Positions 6,181 to 33,381 of a stretch of DNA of 64,000 nucleotides are shown piece by piece. The notes under the pieces are model-generated. The model did no database searches. It saw only the letters and a list, made by a program, of their open reading frames with translations, and was not told where the DNA came from. This stretch comes from Promethearchaeota archaeon (lineage in GTDB: Archaea > Asgardarchaeota > Lokiarchaeia > Sigyniarchaeales > SOKP01). The stretch's first letter is position 1; each line of letters opens with the position of its first letter. The translations under genes and the position numbers were made by a program. The stretch lies in assembly GCA_019058295.1 (NCBI GenBank), contig JAHPZI010000002.1, positions 32,001 to 96,000 of the forward strand. Reading direction: 5' to 3'.

Positions 6181-7473
6181 ATGACTCAAATTGAAAAAAC
6201 AAATTGGCGTCCTATGTGGGAAGACCTCGGCATTGACATGGAAAAACATGATCAATTATTAAGTATCCTACCAGATATTTTCAAGGAGGTTTATATTGAT
6301 TCTCAAAAAAATCGACCAGAAGCTATAAGTTTTTGGGACTTTGTGGTTGGAGATATCCACGGAATACGGGTTAGTGAATTAAAGAAAGCAAAAGAAGAGG
6401 GTAAAAAGGTTATTGGGACCTTCTGTTTATATGTTCCCGATGAGATTATTTTTGCATTAGATGCGATTAGTGTTGGTTTATGTGGGGGTACTAACTTCTC
6501 GAACTATGCTTCTGAAGATCTTCTACCTAACAACATCTGTGCATTAATTAAATCTGCTTTAGGATTTGGAGTAGGTAATATTTGTCCATATTATTCAATG
6601 ACAGATATTCTCATCGGTGAGACTACTTGCGATGGAAAGAAAAAAGCTTGGGAAGTTTTAAAAGATTATAAACCTGTGTATGTAATGGAAACACCTCAAT
6701 GCAAATCTCGCCCGGAAGCAAGAGAACATTTCATTGCAGAGATTAAAGCATTAGTTGCAAAATTAGAAATAGTTACTGGAAACAAACTTACTGTAGAAAA
6801 GTTAAAAGCGGCTATGGAAAAAATAGCTAAGAAAAGAACTCAAATGTGTCGTGTTTATGACGCAAGAAAAATTGATCCTCCCCCAATTTCAGGTAAGGAT
6901 GCTCTTCTTATGTCTCAAGTTGCTTTTTATGATGATCCTGACAGAGAAATAGAAATGGTTAGTAAATTAGCTGATGAATTGGAAGATAGAATTAATAAGG
7001 GTATTGGAGTGGTCAATAAAGGAACTAAACGAATTTTAATTAGTGGAACTCCAATGGCTATTCCAAATTGGAAATTGCACCATATTATTGAAACAAGTGG
7101 GGCTGTAGTTGTTACAGAAGAAACTTGTACTGGAACAAGATATTTTGATTCAGAATTTCCAGAAATTAAAGGAGACTCTATTGATGACTTACTTGGACTT
7201 ATTGCCAATAGATATCTAAATATAAATTGTGCATGTTTCACTCCTAACGATAATCGTTTAAAAGATATTAAGCAACTTTTTAAAGAATATAATGCAGATG
7301 GAATAATCTTCTATACGCTCTCTTTTTGCCAGACTTATGACATAGAATCAATAATGTTTGAAAAAGAACTTAAGAAAGAAGGCATTCCAGTAATGTCCAT
7401 AACTACAGACTACTCATCCGAAGATGAAAGCCAATTAAAAACACGAATTCAAGCGTTCCTTGAAATGATTTAA
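6181..7473 (+). CDS. Double-cubane cluster protein (DCCP) / 2-hydroxyacyl-CoA dehydratase-family reductase
   Basis: GTFCLYVP, GLCGG, NICALIKS, CPY, GETTCDGKKK, EETCTGTRY, CACFTPN, FCQTY Cys motifs. Confidence 0.85.
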   Translation: MTQIEKTNWRPMWEDLGIDMEKHDQLLSILPDIFKEVYIDSQKNRPEAISFWDFVVGDIHGIRVSELKKAKEEGKKVIGTFCLYVPDEIIFALDAISVGLCGGTNFSNYASEDLLPNNICALIKSALGFGVGNICPYYSMTDILIGETTCDGKKKAWEVLKDYKPVYVMETPQCKSRPEAREHFIAEIKALVAKLEIVTGNKLTVEKLKAAMEKIAKKRTQMCRVYDARKIDPPPISGKDALLMSQVAFYDDPDREIEMVSKLADELEDRINKGIGVVNKGTKRILISGTPMAIPNWKLHHIIETSGAVVVTEETCTGTRYFDSEFPEIKGDSIDDLLGLIANRYLNINCACFTPNDNRLKDIKQLFKEYNADGIIFYTLSFCQTYDIESIMFEKELKKEGIPVMSITTDYSSEDESQLKTRIQAFLEMI

Positions 7474-22059: not shown

Positions 22060-23334
22060 TTATTTCTTGTTTTTTTTTATTTTTTTTTTAATTAAAAAAC
22101 CCATTTTGCTCTGAAGTCCAAACAGAGGAATAAAGCCATAACTCAAATTTTGATTAAAAGTGCTAGCCGTTTCATAAGTTGCTAAGTTCATATCATATAT
22201 TCCGTAAGGAGATTCCCTTGCTACAACTTCTGCGCTTCCTTTAAATAATTTTACTTTAACACTACCAGTTACTTTTTTGTTTATTTCATTTATAAACGCA
22301 TCTAATGCATCTTTTAAAGGATCAACCCATAATCCCTCATAAGCTAACTCAGACCATCTTTGATCTACCATGTTTTTAAAGGAATTTTCTTGCTTAGTAC
22401 ATACATATTTCTCAAGATCTTTATGCGCTTTAATAAGCATTAATGCCGCAGGAACTTCATAAGTTTCTCTTGATTTTAATCCAATGGCTCGATCTTCCAT
22501 GTGTTCTATTCTTCCAACACCATGCTTACATCCTAAATCGTGTAATGTTCTTAATAAGTCAATACTACTCATCTTTTCCCCATTTAAGCCTACTGGAACC
22601 CCTTCTTCAAAATTAATAGTTATATATTCGGGCTCATTGGGAGCCTTCTCAGGAGCAATTGTCCATTCTCTCGAATCTTCAGGTGGTTCAATTTCTGGGT
22701 GTTCTAAAATATCACATTCTGCACTTCTTCCAAAGAGATTCTCATCAATGCTATATTTCTTATATTTATTGACTGGAATACCATGTCTTTCTGCGTATTT
22801 GACTTCCTCATCTCGCCCCATATTCCATTCAATTAAGGGTTGTAATACCTCGATTTCTGGAGCGTACGCATTTGCTGTAATATTTATTCTAATCTGATCG
22901 TTTCCTTTCCCAGTACACCCATGTGCTACTACGGAAATTCCTTCCTTTTTAGCAATTTTAATAGCTTCTATAGCAATTAAAGGTCTCCCTACGGCAGTGC
23001 TTAACGGATATATCCCTTGATATAACCCATTGGCTTTAATTGCAGGAAAAACATAGTCTTTTACAAATCTTTCTTTTAAATCTACTGTGTAATGTTTAAC
23101 AGCACCTAATTTATACGCTTTTTCTTCAATTTCTTTAAACCTTGTTGGATCAGCAAATTCTTGACCTAAATCAGCTGTAAATGTATAGACTTTGGCGCTA
23201 TATGTTTCTTGAAGCCACTTAATCATGCAGGAAGTGTTTGATCATATATACATCAATTGTATATATTCTAATCCTCCTGAATACATTAATAAAATCTTAT
23301 CATACTTATCCTTTTTGGGTCCTAATTGATTCAT
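22060..23334 (-). CDS. argG: Argininosuccinate synthase, split gene: exon 1 23334-23268, exon 2 23237-22060 (414 aa after splicing)
   Basis: Exon 2 has YPLSTAVGRP, AHGCTGKGNDQ, YSIDENL, KSRETYE. Exon 1 reads MNQLGPKKDKYDKILLMYSGGL. The joined sequence restores SGGLDTSC. Confidence 0.93.
23238..23267 (-). other. 30-nt bulge-helix-bulge (BHB) intron in argG pre-mRNA
   Basis: Minus strand GGAG-GATT-AG^A-ATATATACA-ATTGA-TGTATATAT-GATC-AA^A-CACTTCCTG: 4-bp central helix, two 3-nt bulges, 9-bp intron stem, in-frame TGA. Confidence 0.88.
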
Positions 23335-27215: not shown

Positions 27216-27317
27216 GGGAGGGTGGTCTAGCTTGGTATGATTCCTGGTTTGGGACTTCAAACAGAAAGCTTGGAGCAAAACACCAGGAGGCCGGGGGTTC
27301 GAATCCCCCCCCTCCCA
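27216..27317 (+). tRNA. tRNA-Pro(TGG) with 28-nt intron at canonical position 37/38; CCA not encoded
   Basis: Acceptor GGGAGGG/CCCTCCC, anticodon stem CCTGG/CCAGG, anticodon TGG at 27250-27252, T-arm GGGGG-TTCGAAT-CCCCC. Confidence 0.95.
27254..27281 (+). other. BHB intron of tRNA-Pro
   Basis: Central helix TTTG/CAAA, bulges GG^A and AC^A, intron stem CTTCAA/TTGGAG. Confidence 0.9.
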
Positions 27318-30290: not shown

Positions 30291-30410
30291 ATTTATTGAA
30301 CCTCATTAAAATAGGTTATATATTATAATATGAGCTATACTAATTTAAGTACTACTAAACTTGACTGATCTTGAATATTAACCATATTATCTGTAAATAA
30401 TCTTCTGCTA
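30291..30410. repeat. 120-bp direct repeat, copy 2 (orphan promoter copy)
   Basis: Matches 28254-28373; the adjoining ATG of copy 1 reads ATC here. Confidence 0.9.
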
Positions 30411-30563
30411 TAGACATATAGAGTATAATAGAGTATCACTGAAAAATCTTATATATATCAATAATATAACTATTTCATTTCAATTGGAGTAATATTTAGA
30501 GATTCTCTCTTGAATTTACTAAATATTATATAAAATCAAAAACTAATCCATAATTTATATTGG

Positions 30564-31394
30564 TTAAATTTTTTGAAATATTAAAAGAATCGAATGACTA
30601 AAATACTTAGCAAAAATTTTATCTATTAATCCTTTTAATATATGTATAAATTTAGGATTTTCTGCATCCACTAAGAGTTGTAAAGATCTTTTTAAGAAGA
30701 ATTTTAGAAAAAATAATTCATCTTTTAAACCTTTAAGACCAGAATAAGGCTCCACATATACTAATCTAAATTTTTTTTCTTCAAAAGTCTTAATGACTGA
30801 GTTTTTATCTAATACATATTGATAAAAATTATTTGGCTCCTTTTTTTCCAAATAATATTTATTATTAAAAATTCTATACATATTAATTCTCGATTTAAAT
30901 TTCCTAAAGGGTGACATATAAGGGAATGTTAAAAATAAATACCCTTTTGGTTTTATAACTCGCTCCATTTCTTTAAGAATATCATTATAACCATTAAAAT
31001 AATGTTCTATAACTCCTATAGACCAATAACCTGAAAAGAAATTGTCTGGATATTGAATTTGACGAATATCTCCAAACTCTATTTTAAGATTTGGCATTAT
31101 TAAATTAATTTTTTTAACAATATTTTTTGCGTAATCAATACCAATAACATCATATTTCATAAAATTGAGAGAATAAACATTCTGACCTAATCCACATCCT
31201 CCTTCAAGAATTACCCCATTATTTGTTTTTAAAAATTTTTTAGTAATTCTACAAACTAATGATTTTGAATTTGGCTGATAAATATTAGATTTTAATTTTT
31301 TCCAATATTTTAACCATTTAATATTCCAGAAGTTATTTCCTACATTTTTATGAAAATAGATAAGTCTATTTTTCTCAATATCATAAAACTTCAT
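30564..31394 (-). CDS. Class I SAM-dependent methyltransferase
   Basis: ILEGGCGLG, GIDY, GDI, GVIEH, RVIKPKG. Confidence 0.88.
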   Translation of the reverse strand: MKFYDIEKNRLIYFHKNVGNNFWNIKWLKYWKKLKSNIYQPNSKSLVCRITKKFLKTNNGVILEGGCGLGQNVYSLNFMKYDVIGIDYAKNIVKKINLIMPNLKIEFGDIRQIQYPDNFFSGYWSIGVIEHYFNGYNDILKEMERVIKPKGYLFLTFPYMSPFRKFKSRINMYRIFNNKYYLEKKEPNNFYQYVLDKNSVIKTFEEKKFRLVYVEPYSGLKGLKDELFFLKFFLKRSLQLLVDAENPKFIHILKGLIDKIFAKYFSHSILLIFQKI

Positions 31395-31651
31395 TAAATC
31401 TTAATCCTTATTGTATTTTTTAAAATTCTTAAAGTTAATTACTATTTTATTTTAATTTTAAGTTTTTTTATAATCTTATTAAATTCTCTTATCATTATTT
31501 TAAGATTGGTTAAAAAAAATCTCTAATACTTTCATCAATTTTTTATATAATAAAATTTTTAGATTTTTTTTTCAAATGAAAATTCAGCAAATTTACGCAT
31601 AATATATAAAGTATAAGAATATTCTTTATTTTGGATTTATACACAAAAAAA

Positions 31652-31672
31652 TTTATAAAGGAGCAATACTCC
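31652..31672 (+). promoter_or_regulatory. TATA box plus third copy of the TetR-type operator
   Basis: TTTATAAAG-GAGCAATACTC-C, same layout as 29022-29042. Confidence 0.7.
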
Positions 31673-31713
31673 TATATAATAGAAATTTTAAAAATATAAA
31701 TTAATAATACAGC

Positions 31714-32298
31714 GTGTTAGGAATAATGCTAAGCGACGATAAAGAATTTGAAAAGATAGTAGAGATGAGTAAAAAGTCATCTGAAGTAATGGAAGAGATT
31801 GCTAGAATGTCGAAATCTGAAACTGTAGATTTGATAGTTGATCACGAATTAAAAGGCGTTTCTGTGAACGCTCTAGATTGGTGGTGGGGCCATATCGATA
31901 ATACAGAACGCTATAAATTATGGCACCCTAATGATCACATTTCATTTAAATGGGAAAAACCTCCCGAAGAGGGACATTTTGGTGCGATCCATTGCGTTAT
32001 AGAAACGATTAAAGTTCCCACCATGTTACGAATTCGTTGGGAAGACCCAAGTTCAATACCCATAAAAGCAACCTACAGCCATTTAGCGGCAGGAAGTGTC
32101 CTTGATAGCAATGATAAACCTCTCAGTTGGATATTACATGAATACGAGCCTATTGATGATGGGACGCGATTGCGTACCACATTTCGATTACCCGCAAAGT
32201 CTCCCCGATGGTTTTTAAAAGCTCTGCGTAAACATAATATTGAAGAGATAGGTGAATTTACAAATTTTTTACCATCGTTATACGAAGAGAATAAGTAA
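31714..32298 (+). CDS. DAPG hydrolase (PhlG)/phloretin hydrolase-like protein
   Basis: DWWWGH...RYKLWHPNDH, H-x3-E, H-x3-E-x3-F-x2-FLP-x-LY pattern. True start may be ATG 31726. Confidence 0.7.
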   Translation: MLGIMLSDDKEFEKIVEMSKKSSEVMEEIARMSKSETVDLIVDHELKGVSVNALDWWWGHIDNTERYKLWHPNDHISFKWEKPPEEGHFGAIHCVIETIKVPTMLRIRWEDPSSIPIKATYSHLAAGSVLDSNDKPLSWILHEYEPIDDGTRLRTTFRLPAKSPRWFLKALRKHNIEEIGEFTNFLPSLYEENK

Positions 32299-32310
32299 TT
32301 TAAATTCTTT

Positions 32311-33381
32311 TTAATGTAGTTGTTTTCTTAATTCTTTTAGGATATTCTCAACTTTTTTATCTTTTATCCAATATCGAATTTTTTTAGATTTCAGTAAGGT
32401 TTGAATTTTTTCGTTTAATTCATTTAATTTTCGACGATCCTCTTCCGATAATTGAGGTATTGCCTCTATTATTTTTTCTTTTACTTTTTCAATTTCTTTT
32501 TCGATAATTGGAATACTAAACTGTTCTTTACCTTCAATAAGTCTCTTTCTCAAGATTTCTTTAATGTTTTTAACCCATCCTTTAATCCAGGGATAATTTC
32601 CTTGCTTTTTTGGGTCCTCTATAACGATATTTTTTCTTTCGACCACAATTAAATCATCAGGGCATGAATTCTCGCAAGCACCGCAGTAAAAACATGCATC
32701 TTCATTACATGCAATTTTTCCATATTTTATGACATCTTCGGCGCTTTCTGGAATAAAAAAAGATTCTGTGGGGCATAGATTAACACAAGCTTTACAACCT
32801 TGCGGATCACACTTCCACAACATATTTTTTTTGATAATTACTTCTCCCTCTATAGGAGAATCAATATGAAAACATTGAGTGGGACACTCTTTTTCAATTC
32901 TGAAATAATCTTTTACGCTGTTTCTATTTCGCACCTTTAAACATAATTCACAAATCTCGTTATTAAGATCTTCAACACATTTATCCTCATCGATTTTGTA
33001 AAATTTACCTATTGTAGGAAATTCATCAAGGTCAATTTGCCCTTCAGGTTCAAAATTTTCGTGAAATGCGTCGGTTGGGCAAACTATGGCGCACAACATG
33101 CAGTAGCAGCATTTTTCATGGTCAATTAAAAGTTTAGGATTAGATTCGTCTAAAATGTTTTGAGCTATTTCTGGAATTGGTCCAAGCTCAATAGCATCAA
33201 CAGGACATACAAGTTTACATAAACTACAACCTATGCATTTTTTAATATCGTACGTAAGTTCTTTTTTAATATCCTTATATTTCCAGTTGAGAAGGAATTG
33301 TTCTGGCCCAATTTCTAACCCTTTTTCAATTTTCTCTTCCGTTTCATCTTGAACATTATCTTCTTTAGACGCTTGAGTTAT
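32311..33381 (-). CDS. Polyferredoxin (4Fe-4S dicluster, FwdF-like)
   Basis: Frame is open upstream of the track start, adding CIGCSLCKLVCP and CCYCMLCAIVCP; further CxxCxxCxxxCP motifs downstream. Start placed at ATA 33381 (inferred). Confidence 0.85.
   Translation of the reverse strand: MTQASKEDNVQDETEEKIEKGLEIGPEQFLLNWKYKDIKKELTYDIKKCIGCSLCKLVCPVDAIELGPIPEIAQNILDESNPKLLIDHEKCCYCMLCAIVCPTDAFHENFEPEGQIDLDEFPTIGKFYKIDEDKCVEDLNNEICELCLKVRNRNSVKDYFRIEKECPTQCFHIDSPIEGEVIIKKNMLWKCDPQGCKACVNLCPTESFFIPESAEDVIKYGKIACNEDACFYCGACENSCPDDLIVVERKNIVIEDPKKQGNYPWIKGWVKNIKEILRKRLIEGKEQFSIPIIEKEIEKVKEKIIEAIPQLSEEDRRKLNELNEKIQTLLKSKKIRYWIKDKKVENILKELRKQLH

Follow-up and report, generated by a model that had tools for sequence, protein, structure and literature searches.

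A 30-nucleotide insert with bulge-helix-bulge-type borders in the ATP-binding motif of argG is very probably spliced from the mRNA in Promethearchaeota

The window analysed here, 64,000 nucleotides (nt) of contig JAHPZI010000002.1 from a Promethearchaeota genome, contains argG, the gene for argininosuccinate synthase. Its reading frame is interrupted by 30 nt within the codons for the SGGLDTS motif, and the RNA around the interruption can adopt a bulge-helix-bulge (BHB)-type structure. Very probably, the endonuclease EndA and the ligase RtcB splice these 30 nt out of the mRNA. The reading as a spliced intron is strongly supported: carriers retain the insert at one and the same position, compensatory changes preserve its pairing, and argG is under purifying selection in them. 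The gene, the phylum and the site within a catalytic motif are new; the kind of mechanism is already known from cbf5.

The argG gene and its 30-nt insert

argG lies on the minus strand at 22060-23334 of the window, with the ATG at 23334 and the stop at 22060. It is the sole argininosuccinate synthase gene of this genome and is made up of the following parts:

23268..23334 (-): exon 1; ATG at 23334, 22 codons (MNQLGPKKDKYDKILLMYSGGL) ending in MYSGGL, plus the G of a split Asp codon
23238..23267 (-): putative 30-nt BHB-type intron; in-frame TGA at 23242-23244
22060..23237 (-): exon 2; starts with AC ACT TCC (AC is the rest of the Asp codon) and reads TSCMIKW... to the stop

Translation of the insert gives EYIQLMYI followed by the TGA, after which the same frame resumes as SNTSCMIKWLQ.... 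Pfam found two ArgG domains in the gene (PF00764 and PF20979, E = 1e-54 and 4e-86). When compared with the ArgG chains of the PDB by phmmer, the insert appeared as a gap of exactly 10 residues, SGGL|DTS (1j1z, E = 2e-100). SGGLDTS, the ATP-binding motif of the N-terminal PF00764 domain, is whole only once the 30 nt are taken out. In BHB introns EndA cleaves either strand behind the second base of the bulge. Cutting argG by this rule joins TTAG to ACACT and restores L-D-T, with GAC as the Asp codon, in a product of 414 residues. The predicted spliced junction is GGAGGAUUAG|ACACUUCC, and the junction peptide expected of the spliced protein is ILLMYSGGLDTSCMIK. The longest uninterrupted open reading frame (ORF) opens at MIKW, has 388 codons and is devoid of SGGLDTS. 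The N-terminus encoded by exon 1 and the region upstream are conserved with intron-less orthologues; 38 residues of the spliced N-terminus are identical to those of the intron-less database protein P0001. The insert is present without gaps in a DNA contig from an independent sample, thus it is not an assembly artefact. The original prediction, made from the letters of the window, had described the TGA-containing interruption of SGGLDTS, the L-D-T reading after cuts behind the second bulge base and a downstream frame lacking the motif; on all three points the data agree with it.

RNA fold of the insert

The elements of the predicted fold are:

23270..23273 (-): 5' strand of the central helix, GAUU, at the end of exon 1; pairs with 23240-23243
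23240..23243 (-): 3' strand of the central helix, GAUC, at the end of the intron; the variants GAUU and AAUC still pair
23267..23269 (-): 5' bulge AGA; predicted cut 23268|23267; AGA is invariant in carriers of a 30-nt insert
23237..23239 (-): 3' bulge AAA; predicted cut 23238|23237
23244..23266 (-): inner hairpin; 9-base-pair stem (23258-23266 with 23244-23252) and 5-nt loop
23228..23279 (-): outer exon-exon helix; CAGGAG (23274-23279) with UUCCUG (23228-23233), or in the canonical register with 23232-23236

The inner stem, AUAUAUACA/UGUAUAUAU, is perfect over its 9 base pairs (bp) and is closed by the loop AUUGA. The structure had been called a canonical BHB. This was correct for the central helix GAUU/GAUC, the strict 5' bulge AGA and the 9-bp stem; it was slightly too strong for the outer helix. 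In the canonical register, i.e. the one with a 3-nt bulge, the outer helix of this genome consists of G-C, A.A, G-C, G.U and A-U, or 4 of 5 pairs, and the A.A mismatch directly follows the closing G-C pair. The 3' bulge is 3 nt long if a G-C pair followed by this mismatch is accepted; otherwise it measures 6 nt. The thermodynamically favoured outer register, CAGGAGG/CUUCCUG (7 bp), takes the first G of the central helix and competes with it. With ViennaRNA the minimum free energy (MFE) fold of the region had -15.5 kcal/mol and lacked the central helix. When the central helix was formed and the 3' bulge comprised 6 nt, the energy was -13.5 kcal/mol, and the strict hBHBh' fold (helix, bulge, helix, bulge, helix) had -5.4 kcal/mol. 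The copy of argG in this genome is a near-canonical or relaxed BHB, and a relaxed BHB would require an endonuclease of broad specificity.

The frequency of such shapes was determined by scanning the whole 3.2-Mb genome for BHBs on either strand (6.4 million positions, 33 lengths). It returned 1188 equally strong shapes, about 6e-6 per position and length. At this frequency there is a negligible probability that a chance BHB would match the 10-residue gap precisely at both of its ends.

The insert in related genomes

An argG insert at this exact site was found in 15 carriers, 7 of the 45 genomes of the same order that carry argG and 8 metagenome contigs. The genome carriers span five genera. 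Three belong to the genus of this genome (G000, which is this genome, G005 and G007), and four other genera contribute one each (G012, G149, G043 and G052). The 8 metagenome contigs have a downstream nt identity of 77-96%. Among the 13 distinct 30-nt versions the central helix was paired in 100% of the cells and the inner stem in 99%. When the partners were slid by 1-3 columns as a control, pairing dropped to only 20-60%. Four inner-stem pairs showed double compensatory changes (A-U/G-C, C-G/U-A, U-A/C-G and A-U/U-A); in the central helix the changes were one-sided and pairing was retained. The second base of the 3' bulge differed among carriers (A, U or G), and it varies freely as expected of an intronic base; G|AC was restored always. 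Application of the BHB cut rule yielded exact L-D-T in 7 of 7 genome carriers. The comparison with relatives, proposed in the original prediction, thus gave a patchy presence, a constant site and compensatory changes.

In G043 a U-A pair replaces the A.A mismatch. There, both bulges are strictly 3 nt long, the canonical outer register is clean and the strict hBHBh' lies no more than 1.2 kcal/mol above the MFE. G052 has an insert of 32 nt at the same site; its sequence is unrelated and it shifts the frame. The MFE fold of this insert is a BHB with a 4-bp central helix and a 3-nt 3' bulge, though the 5' bulge is reduced to 2 unpaired nt. The canonical outer-helix register is clean in G052 too.

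Selection on argG and the history of the insert

An in-frame TGA within an essential motif might signify that argG is dead or dying, inactivated by a short palindromic insertion (a pseudogene, or a footprint like that of a miniature inverted-repeat transposable element). Gene callers report only a shortened argG ORF and many genomes of the family are without detectable argG, as one might then expect. Selection data largely refute this, and we regard it as extremely unlikely. The ratio of nonsynonymous to synonymous substitution (dN/dS) among carriers was 0.03-0.10, similar to intron-less pairs, and the insert was retained in five genera while dS is saturated (above 1.5). In the argG tree the carriers stand beside intron-less sisters with branches of similar length, not longer, so that the carriers show no acceleration. 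The start codon is conserved, as is exon 1 as a whole, and the helices of the insert covary. Further, the insert is a single copy in the genome (BLAST; fuzzy search with up to 7 substitutions), at variance with a mobile footprint. By these comparisons argG is functional and under purifying selection in the carriers; the pseudogene-like decay named beforehand as a point against splicing was not seen.

The argG tree agrees with the division into genera, and no fewer than five gains or losses are needed to fit the distribution of the insert to it. Exon bases with a part in the structure are constrained in the carriers. The split Asp codon was GAC in 7/7 genome carriers vs 9/37 non-carriers (28/37 have GAT). 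Over the 27 nt of the mature junction carriers of different genera differ by 1-2 nt; the differences from non-carriers of the same genus amount to 4-13 nt. In the nearest intron-less relative, with 92-93% nt identity overall, 6 of the 27 junction nt differ. The raised identity between carriers is confined to about 30 nt around the junction. A multi-copy or homing origin was rejected since another genome copy and a long co-conversion tract are missing.

On the side of the gene itself, argG was detectable in only 40 of the 135 genomes of the family (6 of 54 in genus g11, 4 of 42 in genus g2), from which it follows that arginine biosynthesis itself is patchy there. A homologue search of genome contigs found only distant ArgG relatives from other phyla with up to 57% identity.

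Can the insert be translated or ignored?

The ribosome might deal with the insert, either by translational bypass of the T4 gene 60 type or by stop read-through which would add 10 residues. Superficially, argG resembles gene 60: a stop soon after a conserved motif and a stable hairpin in a short untranslated gap inside a coding sequence. In gene 60, however, the mRNA stays intact and bypass requires matching take-off and landing codons. At argG these are missing and no Leu codon precedes the resume site. A hop could not generate the Asp codon either, since in 6 of the 7 genome carriers no GAY codon stands before ACU (AAC in this genome, UAC in G149 and G052). Every version of the insert carries in-frame stops or a frameshift, which bars translation across it. 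Read-through is at odds with the 32 nt of G052 and with the two unlike stop codons that the insert contains in several carriers. Across carriers the amino-acid reading of the insert is not conserved, whereas its base pairing is. Bypass and read-through are most improbable.

Alternatively, the cell might use the 388-residue MIKW... product, alone or together with a 30-residue peptide from exon 1, and never remove the insert. Indeed, an ATG four codons past the insert opens this frame. The product would be without the SGGLDTS ATP-binding motif. Exon 1 is constrained as protein and comes into register with exon 2 only upon removal of the insert by the BHB rule; the constraint on RNA pairing would be left unexplained. 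We give this possibility hardly any credence.

Splicing machinery and tRNA introns

This genome has two EndA genes (PF01974, both above cut-off) of 201 residues each, at 120809-121414 of contig C1 and at 58772-59377 of contig C26. One has the catalytic Tyr, His and Lys residues, the other is without the His. Judged from these residues the pair fits an (alpha-beta)2 type of enzyme. Asgard archaea, as well as TACK archaea, have been reported to possess a broad-specificity (alpha-beta)2 EndA (PMC5829648). Each of the 5 carrier relatives that were checked has RtcB, among them G007, a sister with 98% identity.

An established type of substrate is located 4 kb from argG:

27216..27317 (+): tRNA-Pro(UGG) with a 28-nt intron at 37/38; Rfam 52.5 bits; found by ARAGORN with introns allowed

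ARAGORN overlooks this gene at default settings. Its intron forms a canonical hBHBh' with the helix UUUG/CAAA and the bulges GG|A and AC|A. The intron-bearing tRNA-Pro had been invoked as a sign that the machinery is present, and this tRNA gene is confirmed; it belongs among the substrates of the machinery proposed for argG. By ARAGORN, 9 tRNA genes of this genome have introns.

Two side observations concern the tRNA complement and the lineage. At 30303-33335 of another contig of this genome (C22, outside the window) 27 intron-less tRNA genes are packed within 3 kb. The array may represent a tRNA island of mobile or viral origin, or else contamination introduced by binning. Beyond it ARAGORN listed 16 tRNA genes, the 9 with introns among them, and many isoacceptors are missing. 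A Pfam Actin match of 407 bits fits an Asgard placement of the lineage; the host had been considered a probable Asgard archaeon, and NCBI names the homologues Promethearchaeota or Lokiarchaeota.

How the insert might be removed

The anatomy of the argG insert, its conserved site, the covariation, the selection on the exons and the presence of EndA genes have been demonstrated; cleavage and ligation, and any regulatory role, are inferred. In the transcript GAUU at the end of exon 1 and GAUC at the end of the intron would form the 4-bp central helix. It would be situated between the 9-bp intron hairpin and the exon-exon helix, such that each splice site is in a bulge. A heteromeric (alpha-beta)2 EndA would cut both strands after the second bulge base. 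RtcB would then ligate ...UUAG to ACACU..., restoring the Asp codon of SGGLDTS and with it the 414-residue argininosuccinate synthase. The excised 30-nt intron would be set free, probably as a circle. Because of the in-frame stop in the intron an unspliced mRNA would give only a 30-residue peptide.

Several observations weigh against this mechanism. The strict hBHBh' of argG in this genome is 10 kcal/mol above the MFE, and the best fold that has the central helix requires a 6-nt 3' bulge and is populated to about 3% without protein. RtcB was not found in this assembly, which is 79% complete. The covariation comes from sequences that are related to each other, and for the 8 metagenome sequences the search pattern had set the flanks in advance. 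RNA runs X17 and X20 covered argG only in a conserved internal part, at 22796-23033, away from the junction, and X18 gave nothing (20 runs hold the stretch). The spliced junction was not found in metagenome contigs of the Joint Genome Institute (JGI) with a search pattern that permitted a gap of 0-30 nt; 8 of 8 matches have the 30-nt gap. Nor was a spliced form found among database proteins. Here, the best matches with 414 residues, P0001 and P0002, had been candidates for a spliced transcript; they were rejected since both lie on scaffolds of DNA metagenomes, belong to a relative whose argG has no intron and have different junction codons.

The unfavoured strict fold and the missing RtcB would suit a genuine intervening sequence that is removed by other means, either by another RNase and ligase or by programmed DNA excision. 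Yet, the conserved features are exactly those read by EndA, namely a helix of 4 bp, a bulge of 3 nt and cuts at symmetric positions, and they are strict in G043 and, apart from the 5' bulge, in G052; RtcB, as stated, is present in sister genomes. Against DNA excision, the DNA contig of the other sample has the insert and no joined form, and intron-less DNA with carrier-type argG flanks was not found in searches of metagenome contigs and database relatives. Removal by such other means is very unlikely; removal by EndA and RtcB is the reading we prefer.

Other interrupted genes and annotation

The original prediction had raised the possibility that argG is one of many interrupted genes, and two further cases in the same genome agree with this, the ribosomal protein genes uS11 and uL11, both essential:

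contig C1, 158861-158890 (-), outside the window: uS11, 30-nt insert, in-frame TAA
contig C30, 126695-126724 (-), outside the window: uL11, 30-nt insert, in-frame TAA, clean hBHBh'

The Pfam match of uS11 exceeds the matches in relatives by 30 nt. The same stop-containing lengthening was present in three further genomes of the family, G009, G056 and G105, and in G071 and G035 the uS11 matches are split. The MFE fold of the uS11 insert has an exon-exon helix and a hairpin; a BHB with canonical 3-nt bulges could not be placed in it. In uL11 the outer helix is UAGGACC/GGUCCUA, the central helix GGUU/AGUC, and the bulges are GU|A and AA|A. The inserts of argG, uS11 and uL11 are not copies of each other. 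A search for cbf5 (PF01509) in this incomplete assembly was negative.

A genome-wide census, which combined structure with restoration of an ORF, started from 309,421 raw BHBs, 1188 of them strong. An ORF was restored by 75 vs 60-83 for decoy cut geometries. Candidates were no commoner than decoys, as most of them reflect gene junctions or short ORFs that arise by chance. A slight excess (12 vs 5-6 with decoys) emerged only when 50 open codons were required on each side. One candidate in the window, a BHB-shaped stretch of 23 nt at 6740-6762 (+) flagged as ORF-restoring, was false; it is located inside a continuous ORF of 430 residues at 6181-7473. We consider it likely, with less assurance than for argG itself, that argG belongs to a genome-wide set of about 30-nt micro-introns in protein genes of this family, uS11 and uL11 included, which are spliced by EndA and RtcB and are gained and lost site by site.

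Such introns escape gene callers, as had been supposed. Among the best 120 ArgG database clusters about 25 (among P0005-P0102) are N-terminally shortened, with 377-399 residues and a start near an internal Met. They are annotated as ordinary argininosuccinate synthases though they appear to be without the ATP-binding motif. Two of the short entries, P0058 and P0099, can be assigned to G052 and G149, both of them carriers. Because gene callers shorten such genes, inferences on pathways and completeness of Asgard genomes are biased.

Discussion

In the searchable literature up to 2025-2026 the only archaeal mRNA intron cited as spliced by the endonuclease is that of cbf5. The cbf5 pre-mRNA intron of Crenarchaeota is patchy with lineage-specific loss (PMC2738675, Yokobori 2009). 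As in argG, a short intervening sequence with BHB-like borders is found in a protein gene, the host has a heteromeric EndA and the distribution is patchy. In contrast, argG codes for a metabolic enzyme in Promethearchaeota (Asgard), the intron interrupts the ATP-binding motif after the first 22 codons, and argG is one of several interrupted genes in its genome (uS11, uL11). Splicing and its dependence on EndA were demonstrated experimentally for cbf5; for argG they are deduced. The cbf5 intron was reportedly also studied by Watanabe in 2002 and by Yoshinari in 2006 (Aeropyrum, Sulfolobales, Desulfurococcales).

The hBHBh' motif of archaeal pre-tRNA introns is said to have been defined by Marck and Grosjean in 2003. 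BHB introns of pre-tRNAs and pre-rRNAs share with argG the 4-bp helix, the 3-nt bulges, the cuts behind the second bulge base and an intron hairpin, and the tRNA-Pro has the same geometry. Unlike these, the argG substrate is an mRNA and its splicing must precede or compete with translation. In addition, the exon part of the structure also encodes SGGL/DTS, hence synonymous codons are fixed, and this genome has a relaxed outer helix. A 2026 preprint reported that Asgard tRNA genes are heavily interrupted with repeated intron gains; protein genes were not addressed (10.64898/2026.10.13.758758).

In eukaryotes, HAC1 and XBP1 mRNAs are comparable insofar as a short segment with two structured sites is excised independently of a spliceosome and the ends are joined by a tRNA ligase, in animals by RtcB; the role of RtcB in XBP1 splicing has been mentioned (PMC8718801). 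Ire1, however, recognises stem-loops and not a BHB, and the reaction is a regulated stress response which alters the frame.

The claim is open to direct testing in vitro as a 62-nt substrate and two EndA genes are defined. If argG does belong to a genome-wide set of such introns, mRNA splicing by the tRNA-splicing machinery is routine in relatives of the eukaryotic ancestor, and in such archaea translation must be kept from overtaking splicing. The argG intron thus bears on the origin of introns and on the separation of splicing from translation.

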